From positions 1-53,482 of IMG/VR virus record IMGVR_UViG_3300022918_000002: a DNA stretch of 53,482 nucleotides; one strand, written 5' to 3'. Positions 3,401 through 50,942 of the stretch are shown here, piece by piece. Position numbers and translations under genes: made by a program. Under the pieces are notes generated by a model, which made no database searches, had not been told where the DNA came from, and saw only the letters and a list, made by a program, of their open reading frames with translations. Position 1 is the first letter of the stretch, and every line of letters begins with the position of its first letter. Source of the stretch: a virus. Taxonomy: Duplodnaviria; Caudoviricetes.

Positions 3401-4354
3401 GTTGAAAGCAAAAAAAGCTTGTGTTCCTTCGTTGCCACCTTTAAATATAGCAGCTCTTTCATTATCAAAAATAATGTCGTTATTGTTACCCGTGTGATTA
3501 CTATTAGTTAAAACACTTTCTAATCCCTGTTCAGGCGTAACACCGCTATTTGTAGCTGCTGCAAAATCCCCTGATACTAATTGAGTACCTGAACCGCCAT
3601 AAACCCCGTTAGAACCTATGAATTGAACTAAGTATAAAACACCATCCTGTGTATAGCTAAAATAATATACCAATTCAGGGTTAGATAAATCACGACTTAC
3701 AGAATTTGCCGCTGTAACATAATCGCCTGTAGGTAATGACCCTAAAGATATGGTTTGCGTATTAGGGTCGTTACTTACATCTTGTACGGTTGTGGGTGTA
3801 CTACTTAAAAGCTTAAACATTGAAGCCGTTGTAGCTGTACCTGAACCACCAAAACCACTATTACCCCATGTGCCAGTACCTCCTATAAAAGCATATACTA
3901 ATCGCCTGCCATTGCCATTAATTAAGTTCTCTGTAACCTGAATGTAAACAGGCTTTGTAGTTTCAGTAACAGTAAACGAACCTGATGGAGTACGAGAATT
4001 GTTATTTATAAAGGTTTGTATATTGCCTACAGTAGTATTAAACTGCGCGGTATAGTTTATAAATAAACCTGTGTGGTTATCGCTCCCATCGCTTAACGTA
4101 TTCCAAGATGTTCCGTTGTTATACTCAACTCTGTTATTAGTAGAGTTATATTGTATACGCCCTTTTAAAGGTAGGTTAGGGTATAGCGTATTTGTTTTCC
4201 TAACAGGTAAGATTAATAAGCTGTCTGACTGTATACCCGCTTTAAACCTTGTTCCTTGCGATGCTGTACCGCTTGGGGCTAATGTGCCATTAACTTGCGA
4301 TGTTGCAGTAAACGATACAATAACCATTAAAAATAATAAAAGTCTTTTTTTCAT
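443..4354 (-). CDS. Large tail-fibre/spike-like protein with SGNH/GDSL hydrolase domain and N-terminal signal peptide
   Basis: 1303 aa, G/T/S/N-rich. SGNH blocks AIGDSFT, NSGTNGAT, LGINDV, DGLHPT; fibre-type segment VSKTGDTMTGTL; last large gene of the tail operon; begins MKKRLLLFLMVIVSFTATSQ. Confidence 0.75.
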   Translation of the reverse strand: MKKRLLLFLMVIVSFTATSQVNGTLAPSGTASQGTRFKAGIQSDSLLILPVRKTNTLYPNLPLKGRIQYNSTNNRVEYNNGTSWNTLSDGSDNHTGLFINYTAQFNTTVGNIQTFINNNSRTPSGSFTVTETTKPVYIQVTENLINGNGRRLVYAFIGGTGTWGNSGFGGSGTATTASMFKLLSSTPTTVQDVSNDPNTQTISLGSLPTGDYVTAANSVSRDLSNPELVYYFSYTQDGVLYLVQFIGSNGVYGGSGTQLVSGDFAAATNSGVTPEQGLESVLTNSNHTGNNNDIIFDNERAAIFKGGNEGTQAFFAFNDNFNLTSTDPTFQVNGKWSPLTVLGVEADVNGNIDPTLALSGQFIPLSGTTEGNSVTGTVEFSDAANGYSGSISPNSQILTSGVGTFINVVNPTQIFSGADGANAESFGTRILNTGDGNPQVRSAIHGSNSTEVYSYVDNDVAEIGLNGVNDYGKFLASQDELSTELKGSVKNDADGGVYNHTTTLKYPERTDYTGAGDFVAKLQAKTGTLALLSDITGGGITVPTNLTYTASPTGGTVNSSTGTGAIIPPANTTDSGLFLPDEKAKLASYPNVFNTDNVPETTTNKYVSTAAVLPTIASGKIGYNTTFSTVPNAANALVWNKGYFVSDGVKNIPLGLDTRLVSSLNAIGDSFTNNFNLTANDGYLNKVGNFRGWAITNSGTNGATVATKYKGLYSPLNAEVGIVALGINDVRQYGTAGIPAYINMMTGLLTSFNSSEAVKGQAWTKTTPADWTTSNVFFDTTTGSQTNVNNSPANFTTTGDVIFVTVAYEVSGTTNYTITIDGVSQGSFVANSTALVGYPTPTGTSDTNYYPFTHRFGGLTRGLHTVTITKTGGTALRLIGGLGNGKLKIPYGNRGLAIYVNSAAHMNSTGYTTYPGNIAGLNDAMVDAQNSALFDLCTTLAKDGFQIQYVDVNKYYDPNLSGNVMADGLHPTGQGYTYIFNADATAMAAYNLVDRQLIQAVVKGIGEMSPAISGKVSKTGDTMTGTLQFDPVVTNPFLYYSNFIDAANYARLNVTRSGNDFSLLAGSLGSPVAPNFTIGSSGGRIMFNGANSLINVTGSFLGLSAPFFPGMSAPSATTPMVYGANLNGINSNGFFAAHTFRYKSTATGTGGSESLSVIFENVGTGTGKHYLTTWKTLSGGTTTLKAGVLDTGQIEIPAGTQPEHAANVGQVQTAVFNKSERFVTASTTLTTSDYYVGLTSGTANFTFPTGLTTNMEFVIKNKGAGILTAIGTFDGVVNKTFSTQGSGMRVIWNGASYDIIGLF

Positions 4355-35860: not shown

Positions 35861-36505
35861 TTAAAATATAGTTAATTGTTGTTGATGTTGTTTAAGGCGT
35901 TTTAAAGCGCTTTCATAATAATCTTTATCCAATTCACACGCGGTCAATTCAAAGCCTAAATTATGGCATGCAATAGCAATACTGCCGCTTCCTAAATGCG
36001 TATCTAATATCTTGTCTCCATTTTCAGCGTAATTCATAAGCAACCACTCGTAAAGTTTTACCGGTTTTTGTGTGGGATGGATTCTAACCTCTTTATCTTT
36101 CATATTTCCTTGTAGCATCCCATTCCACATAAAAGTAAATTTATCTACTATAACACCAAATGAATGACTGGCCAATTCACATTTTGAAAATGTACTACTT
36201 TCATTTTGCTTATCCCAAACTATCCTTCCGACATTAGGTATATATTTAGCGTAATAATTGCACCCCCAAATTATTTGATGCTTGCTTACCCTGAATAATT
36301 CATTAAAATAAACCTCATTAGGGACTTCCCAATTTTGTATTTTTTTAGTTTGTCTTCTTACTCCAGATGTGGATATATCATTACCTGTGTAATTGGCTTT
36401 ACCATAATCTTCGAAGTAAGGTGGGTCTGCAATTGCTAAATCGAAATACTTATCTGGATAACGAGCCATTAAATCCATGTTATCCTCGTTTGTTATTTGT
36501 ATCAT
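35861..36505 (-). CDS. DNA amino-methyltransferase (N6A/N4C, beta class), copy 1
   Basis: DPPY catalytic motif first, then HPTQKP and ILDTHLGSGS SAM-binding motif. Confidence 0.93.
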   Translation of the reverse strand: MIQITNEDNMDLMARYPDKYFDLAIADPPYFEDYGKANYTGNDISTSGVRRQTKKIQNWEVPNEVYFNELFRVSKHQIIWGCNYYAKYIPNVGRIVWDKQNESSTFSKCELASHSFGVIVDKFTFMWNGMLQGNMKDKEVRIHPTQKPVKLYEWLLMNYAENGDKILDTHLGSGSIAIACHNLGFELTACELDKDYYESALKRLKQHQQQLTIF

Positions 36506-36509
36506 TTTT

Positions 36510-37412
36510 TTAAGGTTTTGTAAATACTTCTACAGTAGTTGTTTTTTTTACGGGTTTATCTTCTTTTACCGGCTCATAATCTTGCATTACATAAGGTAAT
36601 CTTTCATCGTTTACATTTAATCCAAAGGTTTTAAATTTCTTTCCGCGTGAACGTTGGCATATGACTTCTGAATAATCTCCCATATCTTTTACTATAAGCA
36701 CGGTTTCGCACTTCTGCTGCAATATTGTGCCCAAATGCCCCCTTGCTTTGTCGCTTCCTGGATTTAAGTGTAATACTCCAGTTATGTGGCAATTTGACAA
36801 AGTATTATATTTCATTAACTTTTGTGTAAAAGCTACGCATTCAGTTAAAGAATTAAAATCATTAAGGAAATCAACGTAACCATCAAGTGACACAATGCCT
36901 AATTTATCTTTATAAGGACTTTTAGTAAATAGCCAATCTAAATATGCCATTCGTTCCGATGCACTGTATTCACGTAATTTCACTGCAATGTAATAACTAT
37001 GTATTCCTCCTACTGCCCGCCTTATACGGTCTGCTGTATTCCAACTGTCGTGTTCATCCTGTTCGGTGTCAATATCAATAATGTACTTACCGGCTAAATC
37101 ATGACCTCTTATATCAGGTGCGTATAAATTTGCAGTACCTCCAATTGCACACGCTAAAATCAAACTCTTTGCCCATGTCTTACGGCTTTTCTCCTCCCCT
37201 TTAATCATTGATATGTTTCCAAAAGTTCCAAATCTTAAAGGGTATTGTATTCCGTTGTAAAACCTGTCATCTAATCCTATTGAAATAGCTAATGGTGGCC
37301 TTTTGGGTTTTGTGTTTAAATCAACTGTGCTTTTTTTATGTACATCAGCATAATCTAATTCTTTAGGATCATCTTTTAATGCTAAATCCGGTGTTATTTT
37401 TTGTATTGCCAT
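36510..37412 (-). CDS. RecA-fold P-loop ATPase, putative replicative helicase
   Basis: Walker A variant GEEKSRKT, IDTEQ, Walker B IVSLDG, VLHLN...KARGHLG. Confidence 0.75.
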   Translation of the reverse strand: MAIQKITPDLALKDDPKELDYADVHKKSTVDLNTKPKRPPLAISIGLDDRFYNGIQYPLRFGTFGNISMIKGEEKSRKTWAKSLILACAIGGTANLYAPDIRGHDLAGKYIIDIDTEQDEHDSWNTADRIRRAVGGIHSYYIAVKLREYSASERMAYLDWLFTKSPYKDKLGIVSLDGYVDFLNDFNSLTECVAFTQKLMKYNTLSNCHITGVLHLNPGSDKARGHLGTILQQKCETVLIVKDMGDYSEVICQRSRGKKFKTFGLNVNDERLPYVMQDYEPVKEDKPVKKTTTVEVFTKP

Positions 37413-37414
37413 AA

Positions 37415-38056
37415 TTAAAACATTGTTAATTGCTGTTGATGAATTTTAATGCGTTTACAAGCGGCATCGAAATAATCTTTGTCTAACTCACATGCAGTTA
37501 AATCAAACCCTAAATTATGGCACGCTATAGCTATTGATCCACTACCCAAATGCGTATCTAAAATTAGCTGATTAGGTTTGGCGTAATTCATGAGCAACCA
37601 TTCGTAAAGCTTAACAGGCTTTTGTGTTGGGTGTATTCTTTCCTTATACAATCCATCTTTTGCATTAGCTCCAACCCATCCAACCTTAAATGATCTTAAT
37701 GCACCTCCTTTAGAACTAAAAGCTAATTCTCCATCAGAAAAATCGTTTTCTCCTGTCCCCTTGTCCCAATATATCCAAGATGATATTGGAGGTAAAAACG
37801 GAGTCATGTGATTTGCTCCCCAAACAATCTGGTTTTTTGAAACCCTAAATAATTCATTAAAATAATTATTGTCAGGAGTTTTTAAGTCCCAATCAGAATT
37901 GCCTCTATTTATTTTTTTCTTTCCATTTCCTAAGGTCATTTTATTAGCCCCAATCCCATACGGAGGGTCTACTATAGCTAAGTCGAAATATTTATCAGGA
38001 TAACGAGCCATCAAAGCCATGTTATCTTCATTAGTAATTTTAATTTTATCTACCAT
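37415..38056 (-). CDS. DNA amino-methyltransferase (N6A/N4C, beta class), copy 2
   Basis: DPPY, HPTQKP and ILDTHLGSGS; likely start MVDKI at 38056. Confidence 0.93.
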   Translation of the reverse strand: MVDKIKITNEDNMALMARYPDKYFDLAIVDPPYGIGANKMTLGNGKKKINRGNSDWDLKTPDNNYFNELFRVSKNQIVWGANHMTPFLPPISSWIYWDKGTGENDFSDGELAFSSKGGALRSFKVGWVGANAKDGLYKERIHPTQKPVKLYEWLLMNYAKPNQLILDTHLGSGSIAIACHNLGFDLTACELDKDYFDAACKRIKIHQQQLTMF

Positions 38057-38057
38057 T

Positions 38058-38654
38058 TTAAATTTCATTATCTGTTAATGTTTTACATCCTTTATCCTCG
38101 TAATCTGCATAATGTTCACAGCAATGTAAATCATGCTCTTTATTTTCATATCTAACTAATAATTCAGATAAAAAGTTATTAAGTTTTTCCGTTATAGCTT
38201 CATTGCTAAACATATCTTCTTTCATGAATTTAGCAAAGCTGTCAGTAATTACAGGGTCTTTTGCCTTATCGCTATTTTCTTTGTAAACCTCCCTAAGTGT
38301 TTCTATACTTTGGGGCTTAACGGTATCTTTAAACTCGTAGTGATTAAAAAAATCATTAAGCCTAAACATATCCATATTTAATTTAAAACGCTCGTAATGC
38401 CCTTTTAAAGGCTCTTTAAGTATATTTTGTATTTCCTTTTCTGCCGTAATGTTTGAGCCTTCATAATGCAGTAAAAGCTGATTATAAACATACATAGTCA
38501 TTTTACAAAAATGGTGGTTACGCGCTAATCTTTCCTCTTTCACAAAATTTATCCAGTCTACAACTTCGTTAAAAGCATTAGCATCGGTTTGGTTAGGTTT
38601 GTTGCCTTTTGCTATTGTGTATGCAAGCCGGTTCATTGATTTTTCTATATTCAT
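38058..38654 (-). CDS. Hypothetical protein
   Basis: 198 aa ORF in the replication operon. Confidence 0.6.
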   Translation of the reverse strand: MNIEKSMNRLAYTIAKGNKPNQTDANAFNEVVDWINFVKEERLARNHHFCKMTMYVYNQLLLHYEGSNITAEKEIQNILKEPLKGHYERFKLNMDMFRLNDFFNHYEFKDTVKPQSIETLREVYKENSDKAKDPVITDSFAKFMKEDMFSNEAITEKLNNFLSELLVRYENKEHDLHCCEHYADYEDKGCKTLTDNEI

Positions 38655-39385
38655 AGATTTGATTCTTTTTTATTTTCATAAGCTTCTATTGATTTAAATA
38701 TTGAATATGGTATTATAGGGCATACGGCGTTTCCTAAAGCGTGTAAAGCCAATTGTGTGGAAAACCCATAATTTGATTCACACAATGGGGGCAAGGTTTT
38801 CCGTTGAATAGCATTGATAACCCTATTTGTTTCCCATTCTCTACTCGCCTGGTAATTGCAGGTGTTTTGTATAATGTTCCTCGATCCCTGTTGTCCGATG
38901 CCATTGGGGTAGGCAATAACGTAAAGCCGCTCTCTTTCATGAGGTAATCCAAACGCTTCTGCCGTGAAACATTCCCATTCTGCATTGTACCCGATTTCGG
39001 AAAGGTCAAATAAGACTTTTTCAAATCCTTTTTTAAGGAGGTTTGGGCTATTTTCAATAACGACCCATTCAGGTCTAATTTCGTAAATAGCACGGTCGTA
39101 ATGTTCCCATAATCCGCTTCGTTCTCCCACAATTCCAACTGACTTAAAATTTGCTGCTGAAATATCTTGGCATGGGAATCCTCCTGTAATAATTTTAACT
39201 TTACCATTGTATTCTTTAAAATCAGTTGTTTTTATATCTCCATACTGTTTGCATTCAGGAAAATGTTTTTTTGTTATTGAATTGCAATAATCGCTTATTT
39301 CAACGCTTGCTACATTTTTCCAACCTAATTCGTGTGCTGCTATCTGAAAGCCGCCAATACCGTTAAATAAAGCGTAGTGCTTCAT
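38651..39385 (-). CDS. C5-cytosine DNA methyltransferase, large (alpha) polypeptide
   Basis: Motif I LFNGIGG, IV GGFPCQ, VI ENS, VIII HERER, X LGNAV; no motif IX in this frame. Confidence 0.92.
   Translation of the reverse strand: MKHYALFNGIGGFQIAAHELGWKNVASVEISDYCNSITKKHFPECKQYGDIKTTDFKEYNGKVKIITGGFPCQDISAANFKSVGIVGERSGLWEHYDRAIYEIRPEWVVIENSPNLLKKGFEKVLFDLSEIGYNAEWECFTAEAFGLPHERERLYVIAYPNGIGQQGSRNIIQNTCNYQASREWETNRVINAIQRKTLPPLCESNYGFSTQLALHALGNAVCPIIPYSIFKSIEAYENKKESNL
38734..39207 (-). CDS. Nested alternative-frame beta polypeptide of the C5 methyltransferase (true start probably an internal Met)
   Basis: Same strand, different frame; LLPTPMASD and C-terminal VNQIMGFPHNW match motif IX. 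Confidence 0.7.
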   Translation of the reverse strand: MVKLKLLQEDSHAKIFQQQILSQLELWENEADYGNITTVLFTKLDLNGSLLKIAQTSLKKDLKKSYLTFPKSGTMQNGNVSRQKRLDYLMKESGFTLLPTPMASDNRDRGTLYKTPAITRRVENGKQIGLSMLFNGKPCPHCVNQIMGFPHNWLYTL

Positions 39386-43403: not shown

Positions 43404-43952
43404 TTATTTTATTAAATGTTTCCAATGTGTATTATGTAGTATCCTGCCTATTGTTGATGTGTCAACATTATATTGTTCAGCAATAGACTTAATTGTTTTT
43501 GATTTGCCTATGGCGCGTATCTCTAAAACTTGTATTTCAGTTAATTTAGCGGCTGCATTTTTAGTTCCTTTGCATGATTTCATTAAATTATTTGAATGAG
43601 CATGATGGCTATTTTCTTTAGGTGTTACCCATTCGAGTTCAGTAACTCTGTTGTCATTCTTTATTCCTAATTTGTGATTAACTTCTGATTTTTTTTCAGG
43701 GTTTGGAATAAAAGCAATTGCAATTAACCTATGCAGTAAAAAACTATTACCACCATTCTTTTTGCTCAACCTTACTTGTAAATAACCATCTTTAGTTGTG
43801 CATGGTTTTAGAGGTCGTTCTTTGTAAAAATGATACTTATTATTTGGGGTTATAAATCTCCAATAACTAAGAGATTTAATATTACCTAAATTAGACACGG
43901 CATACAAACCCTCATAACCCACTACGTCTTTCCATTCTTCTATAATATCCAT
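43404..43952 (-). CDS. NUMOD4-HNH homing endonuclease
   Basis: EEWKDVVGYEGLYAVSNLG (NUMOD4), HRLIA..F.PNP...VNH....K.DNRV.ELEW....N; likely start MDIIE at 43952. Confidence 0.92.
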   Translation of the reverse strand: MDIIEEWKDVVGYEGLYAVSNLGNIKSLSYWRFITPNNKYHFYKERPLKPCTTKDGYLQVRLSKKNGGNSFLLHRLIAIAFIPNPEKKSEVNHKLGIKNDNRVTELEWVTPKENSHHAHSNNLMKSCKGTKNAAAKLTEIQVLEIRAIGKSKTIKSIAEQYNVDTSTIGRILHNTHWKHLIK

Positions 43953-43955
43953 AAT

Positions 43956-44069
43956 AAAAATAAAAAGCCTACCATACTCCAAACGCATCTCAACTCGTTC
44001 TTTGTATAATAGGCTATAATGTCTTTAATGTTGCTTTAATTGAGATGCTGCAACCTTATAGCAAATATA
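43956..44069 (-). ncRNA. Kissing-loop/terminator leader, copy C
   Basis: Promoter TATATTTG 44069-44062; hairpin GTTGC/GCAAC with loop GCATCTCAA; terminator AGCCTATTATAC/GTATGGTAGGCT with apical TTGAGATGC (9-nt complement). Confidence 0.72.
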
Positions 44070-50313: not shown

Positions 50314-50380
50314 TTTAAAGTTAATTTCAAAGGTAATAAAAAACCCCGCTAATTGCATGGTAAATTGTTTTAGTACGGGT

Positions 50381-50444
50381 TCTGACGGAAATTACTTTCC
50401 ATTAGATTTTAAGTCTAACGTGGCTACCATTACACCATAGATGC
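50381..50444 (-). pseudogene. Truncated tRNA-Leu(UAA)
   Basis: Intact 5' acceptor strand, D-arm, anticodon arm TTAGA-CTTAAAA-TCTAA and long variable arm GGAAA-GTAA-TTTCC; no TTCGA T-loop or matching 3' acceptor strand. Confidence 0.75.
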
Positions 50445-50450
50445 ATATTG

Positions 50451-50522
50451 AGCAGGATAAAGGATTCGAACCTTTATTAACAGGGTCGTAACCTGTGATT
50501 TTATCCATTAAACTAATCCTGC
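50451..50522 (-). tRNA. tRNA-Arg(ACG)
   Basis: GCAGGAT/ATCCTGC acceptor, ACAGG-TTACGAC-CCTGT, AAAGG-TTCGAAT-CCTTT; A20 present; no encoded CCA. Confidence 0.9.
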
Positions 50523-50527
50523 CTTTG

Positions 50528-50601
50528 GGTGTTATAAGAGGATCGAACTCTTATCACGGGATTCACAGTCCCGCCGCTTAACCATTTAGCGTAATAACAC
50601 C
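50528..50601 (-). tRNA. tRNA-His(GUG)
   Basis: G-1/C73, GTGTTAT/ATAACAC, CGGGA-CTGTGAA-TCCCG, AAGAG-TTCGATC-CTCTT. Confidence 0.93.
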
Positions 50602-50608
50602 ATTTTAG

Positions 50609-50680
50609 TTTCAGATAATGGATTCGAACCATTACAACGAAAGTCAAAGTTTCGTATGCTAACCGTTACATCAATCTGAA
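50609..50680 (-). tRNA. tRNA-Gln(UUG)
   Basis: U1-A72 acceptor TTCAGAT/ATCTGAA, CGAAA-CTTTGAC-TTTCG, AATGG-TTCGAAT-CCATT. Confidence 0.92.
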
Positions 50681-50685
50681 TTTAG

Positions 50686-50758
50686 TCGAAAGCGGAGGGT
50701 TCGAACCTCGACCTCCTCGTTCCAAGTGAGGGATGCACGCCATTACAACACGCTCTCG
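50686..50758 (-). tRNA. tRNA-Pro(UGG), atypical
   Basis: Anticodon loop CTTGGAA, T-loop TTCGAAC; best fold by hand has an 8-bp acceptor and 4-bp T stem, with mismatches in the D and anticodon stems. Confidence 0.8.
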
Positions 50759-50772
50759 AATTATATTTAAAT

Positions 50773-50798
50773 AAAAAAACCTCCCGTAAAGGAGGTTT
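50773..50798 (-). terminator. Attenuator terminator upstream of the tRNA cluster
   Basis: AAACCTCC-TTTACG-GGAGGTTTTTTT, ending 14 nt before tRNA-Pro. Confidence 0.88.
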
Positions 50799-50826
50799 GC
50801 TATATTATATATGTTATCTCACATAC

Positions 50827-50898
50827 TTATACGCCTATACCTCCTGATAAATTATCGGGTTGTAAAAGTCGTTGAGTATGTAACATAGTTGTTTTCAT
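50827..50898 (-). CDS. Leader peptide of the tRNA-operon attenuator (MKTTMLHTQRLLQPDNLSGGIGV)
   Basis: ATG 5 nt downstream of TATATTTG (probably leaderless); contains AGGAGGT complementary to the terminator 5' arm; stop codon 28 nt before the terminator. Confidence 0.75.
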   Translation of the reverse strand: MKTTMLHTQRLLQPDNLSGGIGV

Positions 50899-50902
50899 GC
50901 AG

Positions 50903-50910
50903 CAAATATA
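50903..50910 (-). promoter_or_regulatory. Bacteroidota -7 promoter box for the tRNA operon
   Basis: TATATTTG matches the TAnnTTTG consensus. Confidence 0.75.
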
Positions 50911-50942
50911 CAAATGTTTTTTAATAATCCTACTTTATATTT

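Follow-up and report, generated by a model that had tools for sequence, protein, structure and literature searches.

A phage tRNA cassette with A37 in place of G37 for CNN codons, preceded by a putative attenuator

Why should a phage carry four tRNA genes that all read CNN codons, all with A at position 37, behind a short open reading frame (ORF) rich in the same codons? The question is raised by IMG/VR record IMGVR_UViG_3300022918_000002, a single contig of 53,482 bases that covers a complete tailed-phage genome; the whole record was analysed and is called the window below. In bacteria, G37 of tRNA-Pro and its methylation by TrmD to N1-methylguanosine (m1G37) are regarded as near-universal and essential, and TrmD is an antibiotic target. 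A preliminary description of the locus had proposed that the tRNA set is a backup for the CNN codon boxes, either independent of TrmD and m1G37 or resistant to a nuclease that recognizes G36-G37. We found that the genes belong to a recurrent cassette in which A37 is conserved, and that their counterparts in the inferred host lineage carry G37. At a probability of roughly one half, we read the cassette as an on-demand replacement tRNA set lying outside the G36-G37 (TrmD substrate) class of the host.

Position 37 in the phage tRNAs and their host-lineage counterparts

ARAGORN and the Rfam model RF00005 (cut-off 29 bits) were concordant in calling four tRNA genes, all above the cut-off, on the minus strand at 50450-50758. 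tRNA-Pro(UGG) lies at 50685-50758 (anticodon loop CUUGGAA at 50726-50720, with G36 at 50722 and A37 at 50721; 38.0 bits), tRNA-Gln(UUG) at 50608-50680 (CUUUGAC, G36 at 50645, A37 at 50644; 59.8 bits), tRNA-His(GUG) at 50527-50600 as called, or up to 50601 with G-1 (CUGUGAA, G36 at 50564, A37 at 50563; 59.1 bits), and tRNA-Arg(ACG) at 50450-50522 (UUACGAC, G36 at 50487, A37 at 50486; 62.0 bits). The loop strings matched those of the preliminary description, in which all four tRNAs read CNN codons and have G36 followed by A37; the TrmD substrate motif 36-GG-37 is absent from every one of them. The tRNA-His gene encodes G-1 (50601) opposite C73, a feature of bacterial tRNA-His, and GGUG...CACCC ends were also found in most His genes of the related cassettes described below.

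The four genes had also been described as intact. They do score above the cut-off, but tRNA-Pro is the weakest of them and contains two mismatches, A31.C39 and a C.C in the T stem, the sole such case among 14 aligned homologues; its score falls within the spread of the cassette homologues (from below the cut-off to 56.9 bits). In addition, tRNA-Arg is adjoined by a decayed tRNA-Leu-like remnant (50373-50444, minus strand), which retains a Leu-type D arm, a loop reading CUUAAAA and a long variable arm and has lost the T arm. Called by neither ARAGORN nor Rfam, the remnant occupies the position of tRNA-Leu(UAG) in intact cassettes, and its best local alignment was with the Leu(UAG) gene of one such cassette (L543).

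The host is probably a member of the Bacteroidota, from the Flavobacteriaceae or a neighbouring family, because the nearest named relative of the cassette lies in a Cellulophaga phage and the terminase matches are mostly to phages of Bacteroidota. In the phage collection, the best match to the tRNA region was Cellulophaga phage phi19:1, whose own terminase is unrelated; the terminase of the window matched mainly phages of Flavobacterium, Polaribacter, Cellulophaga and Bacteroides.

Had the host isoacceptors carried A37 as well, the proposed contrast would have vanished; in the inferred host lineage, they have G37 loops. For Pro, Gln, His, Arg and Leu, the host loops read UUUGGGA, UUUUGGU, UUGUGGU, UUACGGC and CUUAGGA versus CUUGGAA, CUUUGAC, CUGUGAA, UUACGAC and CUUAGAA in the phages. 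Position 37 differs in 4/4 window genes, and positions 32 and/or 38 also differ in three of the four; in tRNA-Arg, position 37 is the sole difference. A Flavobacteriaceae genome with a complete set of 37 tRNA genes (G020) has G37 in all eight of its G36 tRNA genes (Pro, two copies; Gln, His, Arg-ACG, Arg-UCG, Leu-GAG and Leu-UAG). Among the genes called in 31 evenly drawn Flavobacteriaceae genomes, the loop was UUGUGGU in 30/30 His, UUUUGGU in 29/29 Gln, UUACGGC in 32/32 Arg-ACG and CUUAGGA in 30/30 Leu-UAG genes.

The contrast extends to the class Bacteroidia. In 31 genomes of the class searched by BLAST with host tRNA genes, Leu-UAG being left out, G37 was found in 27/28 cases for His, 7/8 for Gln and 4/4 for Arg-ACG; His was recovered from 27/31 genomes, and so few Gln (8) and Arg (4) genes were recovered that the class-wide statement for these two is one of small numbers. 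Pro-UGG of Bacteroidota had G37, in the loop UUUGGGA, in 17/17 loci with a call among the matches listed. The premise that His, Gln and Arg tRNAs also have G37 in some lineages holds for His, Gln and Arg-ACG of Bacteroidia.

TrmD (PF01746) was present in 3/3 genomes tested. According to the part of PMC8643618 accessible to us, TrmD acts on G37 located directly 3' of G36 (36-GG-37), the motif that the host-lineage counterparts of the window tRNAs carry. Because TrmD is present in these genomes and the 36-GG-37 rule applies, G37 is presumably methylated on the His, Gln and Arg tRNAs of Bacteroidia. As far as gene sequences tell, the host lineage reads the entire CNN block with G36-G37 tRNAs, and the cassette supplies the A37 equivalents; the cassette tRNAs would not be substrates of TrmD, because G36-A37 replaces G36-G37.

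Recurrence of the cassette and conservation of A37

The tRNA genes are part of a cassette of ~590 bp (50352-50942, minus strand), which comprises a putative promoter, the leader, a terminator, the four tRNA genes and the remnant. In a blastn comparison with the related viral contig G001, the flanks aligned on both sides and ~95 bp stood in place of window 50352-50942; the cassette is an insertion or deletion relative to G001. In phi19:1, ARAGORN called genes for Pro(UGG) (missing from the annotation of the record), Gln, His, Leu(UAG) and Arg(ACG), all with A37 and preceded by a leader and terminator much like those of the window. Two pattern scans of viral contigs yielded further copies (L047, L067, L087, L096, L134, L540, L541, L542, L543, L544, L546 and L551), and the cassette recurs in at least 13 other viral contigs, phi19:1 included. 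Its content is Pro-Gln-His-Arg-Leu(UAG) in variable order, with an extra tRNA-Glu in three cassettes.

Over 15 loci, A37 was found in 14/15 Pro, 15/15 Gln, 15/15 His, 12/12 Arg-ACG and 10/10 Leu-UAG genes, that is, in 66/67 cassette genes overall, a recurrence of composition and A37 beyond what chance would give; the 15 loci are homologous copies of one cassette, and these counts measure conservation rather than independent origins. In the 14 aligned Pro genes, compensatory changes had occurred in 16/17 predicted pairs, while the loop was fixed and A37 was present in 14/14. A37 is conserved under stem covariation, and because the stems turn over by compensatory change while the loop stays the same, we read it as selected. 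Identity to host tRNAs was considered as a guide to the origin of the set and was discarded: cassette tRNAs are 53-75% identical to host-family tRNAs, and the tRNAs of phages for non-CNN codons fall in the same range.

Two structural peculiarities were observed in the arrays. In L096, a tRNA-like element between Pro and Gln (4048-4117) scored 42.9 bits with Rfam, received no ARAGORN call and has an aberrant anticodon arm. The phage genes called tRNA-Leu(UAG) are often only 73-78 nt long, without the long variable arm, and keep a Leu-like D arm and A73 (L001:1651-1725, L087:9934-10008, L134:4010-4085 and L543:13207-13281, for example); this short form accounted for 15/24 Leu(UAG) genes among the A37-scan matches listed.

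To place the cassette among viral and bacterial tRNAs, we applied one neutral pattern, in which either purine was allowed at position 37 of the Pro(UGG) loop, to viral contigs and to a bacterial set with one genome per species. Among the matches listed for the bacterial set (80 loci), all 68 Pro(UGG) genes confirmed by ARAGORN had G37 and none had A37 (12 were uncalled and 1 was a Gln gene), in keeping with the statement in the preliminary description that bacterial tRNA-Pro almost always has G37. Viral contigs gave 55 Pro(UGG) genes with G37 and 10 with A37 (14 uncalled, 4 Leu genes). The difference, 10/65 viral versus 0/68 bacterial genes among the matches listed, was significant (Fisher p = 5e-4). 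Within viral arrays of at least three tRNAs, Pro had G37 in 47 cases and A37 in 11 (11/58). A scan specific for A37 found true Pro(UGG) genes with CUUGGAA in 58/80 viral loci among the matches listed; these loci represent very different arrays, eight of which also contain a G37 copy. Judging from these counts, A37 in tRNA-Pro is a common phage trait and not peculiar to this phage. T4, considered as a classical precedent, was rejected as such, its tRNA-Pro having G37. For Leu(UAG), the viral sample contained 12 genes with A37 and 11 with G37, and the bacterial loci had G37 in 5/5. The viral A37:G37 ratios were 10:5 for His, 17:9 for Gln and 7:2 for Arg.

Of 301 Flavobacteriaceae genomes, 15 had a match to the A37 pattern, and a reversed-pattern control matched about as often. 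Real A37 tRNA-Pro genes were present in just two loci, one of which is a 12-tRNA array that also holds A37 genes for Leu, Gln, His and Arg. At L416 (G019:C1:1412300-1417300) and L376 (G046), Flavobacteriaceae chromosomes contain closely packed arrays of 15 and 12 tRNA genes, one of them in Aquimarina latercula. Their loops are phage-like (His CUGUGAA, Arg UUACGAC, short Leu-UAG CUUAGAA), and they are probably prophage or other mobile arrays. Departures at position 37 were also noted in other phage tRNAs: G37 in 8/14 Phe(GAA) genes, U37 in some Asp(GUC) and Glu(UUC) genes (loops CUGUCUA and CUUUCUA), and G37 in Leu(UAA) of L134 and L541.

The leader and its predicted alternative pairings

Upstream of the tRNA genes lies a leader ORF of 23 codons plus a stop (50827-50898, minus strand). 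Codons 7-14 (50857-50880) read CAT ACT CAA CGA CTT TTA CAA CCC and encode His-Thr-Gln-Arg-Leu-Leu-Gln-Pro; six of them are CNN codons, as had been counted before. An intrinsic terminator follows at 50770-50798 (minus strand), with a 9-bp stem AAACCUCCU/GGGAGGUUU and a U run, and ends ~12 nt before tRNA-Pro. In the 3' part of the ORF, a candidate antiterminator strand AGGAGGU (50839-50845, minus strand) duplicates the terminator's 3' arm and could base-pair with the 5' arm. Four nucleotides upstream of the leader ATG, there is a TATATTTG box (50903-50910, minus strand), which we take to resemble the -7 element of Bacteroidota promoters. A similar box precedes nearly all other cassette leaders. 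As a marker of the host, the TAnnTTTG box was abandoned: genome-wide, 99 were found versus 88.6 expected, and a spaced version did no better.

The layout, with a TAnnTTTG-like box, an ORF, and a hairpin with a U run just before the first tRNA, is common to 13/13 cassettes (attenuators in window 50770-50910, minus strand, and in L001, L047, L067, L087, L096, L134, L540-L544 and L551). The leader ORFs are 22-30 codons long, with a core in which codons for His, Gln, Arg, Leu and Pro follow one another, as in Q-H-L-P-Q-R and L-R-H-P-Q-Q. Minimum-energy folding predicts pairing of the codon run with the 3' part of the ORF, and the terminator as a hairpin of its own. We then left off the 3' arm of the terminator and masked the codon run as if it were covered by a stalled ribosome. 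Under these settings, 12/13 cassettes were predicted to pair the terminator's 5' arm with the 3' segment of the ORF; in phi19:1, the one miss, the search window was misplaced. The antiterminator duplex was stronger than those of shuffled sequences in 8/13 cassettes (p<0.05). In the window, the duplex had an energy of -11.6 kcal/mol, whereas shuffled sequences averaged -5.2 (p=0.006), and AGGAGGU was paired with the terminator's 5' arm when the nascent transcript was folded. The end of the ORF and the two arms of the terminator covary across the 13 cassettes (GGAGG/CCUCC, GGGUGG/CCAUCC, GAGUGG/CCACU, AUGGGG/CCCCAU). Judged by these models, the leader fits the design of trp/his-type attenuators, with codons that match the downstream tRNAs.

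The match between codons and tRNAs extends to the variable member of the cassette: Glu codons were present inside the leader core in 3/3 cassettes with tRNA-Glu and in 0/10 others. Two related contigs with large tRNA complements, L134 (22 tRNAs) and L541 (21 tRNAs), allowed a comparison within single arrays. Their leader-controlled operon consists of Pro, Glu, Gln, His, Leu-UAG and Arg-ACG, and 6/6 of its loops differ from those of the host family at position 37 or 38, versus only 2/16 and 2/15 loops in the divergent operon of L134 and L541, respectively (Fisher 4e-4 and 5e-4).

Candidate explanations and related systems

In our preferred reading, that of an on-demand replacement set, the four genes would be the working remainder of a mobile phage cassette with one tRNA per amino acid of the CNN block, originally including Leu-UAG. 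Presenting no G-G or m1G37 face of the anticodon loop, the cassette tRNAs would keep decoding CNN codons when the G37 class of the host is disabled, be it by an anticodon-loop nuclease or another tRNA-damaging defence that reads the G37 side, or because m1G37 is missing. With a ribosome stalled on the His, Gln, Arg, Leu or Pro codons of the leader, the terminator's 5' arm would be captured by the exposed 3' part of the ORF; transcription would then read through into the tRNA genes, and once decoding of CNN codons is restored, termination would resume.

The cassette may serve as an escape either from the loss of m1G37 or from an anticodon-loop nuclease. That the loop-variant tRNAs have a separate, presumably stall-sensing control favours a failure of host tRNAs that is conditional and confined to one class over general avoidance of TrmD. 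The loop-variant tRNA-Glu leans to an agent that recognizes the loop on its 3' side, and nuclease or other damage would fit better than a pure TrmD effect, because the tRNA-Glu of some cassettes is not a TrmD substrate. As a counterweight, the TrmD route is suggested by the composition of the class (five-sixths G36-G37), by the ability of A37 tRNAs to bypass m1G37 deficiency and by the tolerance of G37A in editing by ProRS; in the accessible part of PMC3973320, G37A alters the deacylation of tRNA-Pro by ProRS only 2-5 fold. Of the backup proposed in the preliminary description, the placement outside the G36-G37 class and the leader with matching CNN codons stood, and the tRNA-Glu genes did not fit the G36 definition; neither the m1G37 nor the nuclease alternative was singled out.

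Several observations weigh against a replacement set of this kind. The closest complete relative of the phage (G003, 100% complete, terminase 91% identical) has zero tRNA genes, and of 15 other terminase relatives, many of them fragmentary, 14 are without tRNA genes and one has an Asp gene only. The cassette of the window is itself eroding, with Leu dead and two mismatches in Pro, which argues against strong current selection here. The single exception to A37, a second Pro copy with G37, lies in a leader-controlled array (L067). tRNA-Glu, present in three cassettes, is not a G36 tRNA, so that the class does not consist purely of TrmD substrates, and the agreement between Glu codons and tRNA-Glu may be a single evolutionary event, the three leaders being alike. 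A37 is ordinary for His, Gln and Arg-ACG in many bacteria and phages, and ancestry could explain the host contrast for these tRNAs. We know of no nuclease that targets G36-G37 tRNAs, and loss of TrmD activity would hit only newly made host tRNA. The host was inferred from phage relatives, and the terminase also matches, at low identity, Arthrobacter and enterobacterial phages. The reading further presumes that the cassette tRNAs are expressed and charged, that host tRNAs bear m1G37, that stalled ribosomes elicit the predicted response and that an insult of the supposed nature occurs.

The main rival is ancestry without special function: phages would share a tRNA pool rich in A37, which is tolerated in short infections and fed by AT-biased mutation, and the CNN set would be the descent of one cassette. 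Consistent with this, viral genes for His, Gln, Arg and Leu-UAG from many unrelated contigs often carry A37, cassette tRNAs resemble host-family tRNAs to the same degree as non-CNN phage tRNAs do, and the copies are homologous, so that their shared composition is a single observation; the decay of the window copy and its absence from close relatives point the same way. We nevertheless consider this explanation rather unlikely. A37 persists throughout the cassettes, with the one exception given above, despite compensatory turnover of the stems, and G is retained at other conserved tRNA positions despite AT bias. The lack of A37 in the bacterial Pro-UGG genes among the matches listed (0/68) indicates that this state is not neutral in cells. 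Moreover, ancestry does not account for the segregation of loop-variant tRNAs of L134 and L541 in a leader-controlled operon of their own, nor for leader codons that track cassette content.

Under pure modification independence, host tRNAs need not be attacked at all: late in infection, bulk synthesis of tRNAs would exceed what host TrmD can methylate, and the unmethylated G37 would be error-prone and poorly charged. Such a need would explain A37 in Pro and Leu-UAG across many phage lineages (58/80 A37-scan loci among the matches listed; 11/58 of array Pro genes). Poor charging of unmethylated G37 tRNA-Pro, and bypass of the defect by A37 tRNAs, are documented in the accessible part of PMC8643618. 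The phage itself encodes three clustered DNA methyltransferases (35861-39385, minus strand; two of N6/N4 type and one of C5 type), which also use S-adenosylmethionine (SAM). What this explanation leaves out is the CNN-only content, the stall-sensing leader that sets these tRNAs apart from the others in L134 and L541, and the loop-variant tRNA-Glu; besides, T4 tRNA-Pro retains G37 and eight arrays contain both A37 and G37 forms of Pro. We judge it to be quite improbable. CCC is the most depleted Pro codon in the phage (3.3 versus 7.8 per 1000 in the host family), with CCG and CCT not depleted; slippage of tRNA-Pro without m1G37 could produce this bias, and so could chance.

Codon compensation, the classical explanation of phage tRNAs, would have them top up codons used more by the phage than by its host. 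Codon usage was compared between 71 ORFs of the phage and 150 long ORFs from Flavobacteriaceae loci, a family mix that may differ from the true host. CNN codons were rarer in the phage (125.5 versus 149.4 per 1000), the phage/host-family ratio being below 1 for 12/16 of them; CAG (1.60) and CGT (1.43) were somewhat over-used. For the most over-used codons, AGG, TGC, ACA and ATA, the phage has no tRNA. As the reason for the tRNA set, codon compensation was rejected as very improbable.

The remainder of the genome (G+C 34%) encodes a capsid protein, an SPP1-type portal, small and large terminases and an endolysin. No tRNA repair or modification enzyme was recognisable among the phage genes. At 43404-43988 there is an HNH/NUMOD4 gene that resembles homing endonucleases. 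Relatives traced with the endolysin and terminase were tried as a source of more cassette copies and proved unproductive, the backbone being common and the cassette not; they did reveal the cassette as an insertion or deletion. In one terminase relative, L027 (G005:C1:24820-27892), ARAGORN called a permuted tmRNA-like gene that overlaps tRNA-Asp.

If our preferred reading is correct, a cassette with G37 changed to A37 across the CNN block would be evidence that translation can proceed in the absence of m1G37, and would point to a weakness that a whole class of host tRNAs shares and that phages bypass, maybe to a new tRNA-directed defence in Bacteroidota. With its matching codons, the leader suggests feedback control, by which the virus would gauge decoding capacity and top up exactly the failing tRNAs. 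More tentatively, it is possible that Bacteroidia disable G36-(m1)G37 tRNAs block-wide by an as yet undescribed route, be it a nuclease keyed to the dinucleotide or a defence acting through TrmD or SAM, and that the self-regulating A37 cassette, with a leader peptide that senses CNN decoding, is the answer of their phages. Recoding of position 37 is perhaps a general phage strategy, overlooked until now, that puts tRNAs beyond host enzymes acting on this position or nucleases reading it; Pro and Leu-UAG tRNAs with A37, Phe tRNAs with G37, and some tRNAs for Asp and Glu with U37 may be examples. The presence of the cassette in phi19:1, with the cultured host Cellulophaga baltica, makes our reading directly testable.

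The leader resembles the trp, his and leu attenuators in its short ORF with regulatory codons, in mutually exclusive 1:2, 2:3 and 3:4 pairings, and in its terminator with a U run. In the mgtL leader of Salmonella, Pro codons are said to report TrmD activity. Unlike in all of these leaders, the regulated genes here are tRNAs for the leader's own codons, not genes for biosynthesis or transport, and the signal would be decoding capacity, not amino-acid supply. In a literature search with incomplete coverage of subscription journals, we found no report of a phage tRNA operon controlled by a leader peptide, of phage tRNA-Pro or tRNA-Leu with A37, or of a relation between TrmD and phage tRNAs. The tRNA cluster of T4 is likewise a compact array with Pro(UGG) and Gln(UUG), but the loop of its tRNA-Pro is UUUGGGA, with G37, and the array is not confined to one codon block. 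tRNA-based phage escapes from retron and PARIS defences have reportedly been observed.

Phage tRNA loops that differ from those of the host were proposed as an escape from anticodon nucleases by van den Berg et al. (2023, eLife, PMC10264068; seen in part), and the change from G37 to A37 across the CNN block would be a variant of this published idea. The two systems are alike in decoding the same codons as the host tRNAs, in an altered loop beside the anticodon and in the proposed upkeep of translation. They differ in that a single change, G37 to A37, runs here through a whole codon block of five tRNA species, which coincides with the TrmD substrate class of the host lineage, and in that the set would be gated by a leader peptide. 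In the text of that paper accessible to us, 'position 37', A37, G37, m1G, TrmD and proline do not occur; its supplementary files 1a-c list loop differences and could bear on novelty.

The closest likeness in decoding is found in trmD-deficient Escherichia coli (Clifton et al., 2021, NAR, PMC8643618; seen in part), in which G36-A37 tRNAs decode CNN codons without TrmD. These strains evolved via A37 tRNA-Arg genes recoded to anticodon CCG, whose products are described there as unaffected by m1G37 deficiency. That case involves laboratory evolution and a single Arg tRNA in the cell, whereas the cassette would be a natural, mobile phage set of five tRNA species, which includes Pro and Leu-UAG, where bacteria keep G37.

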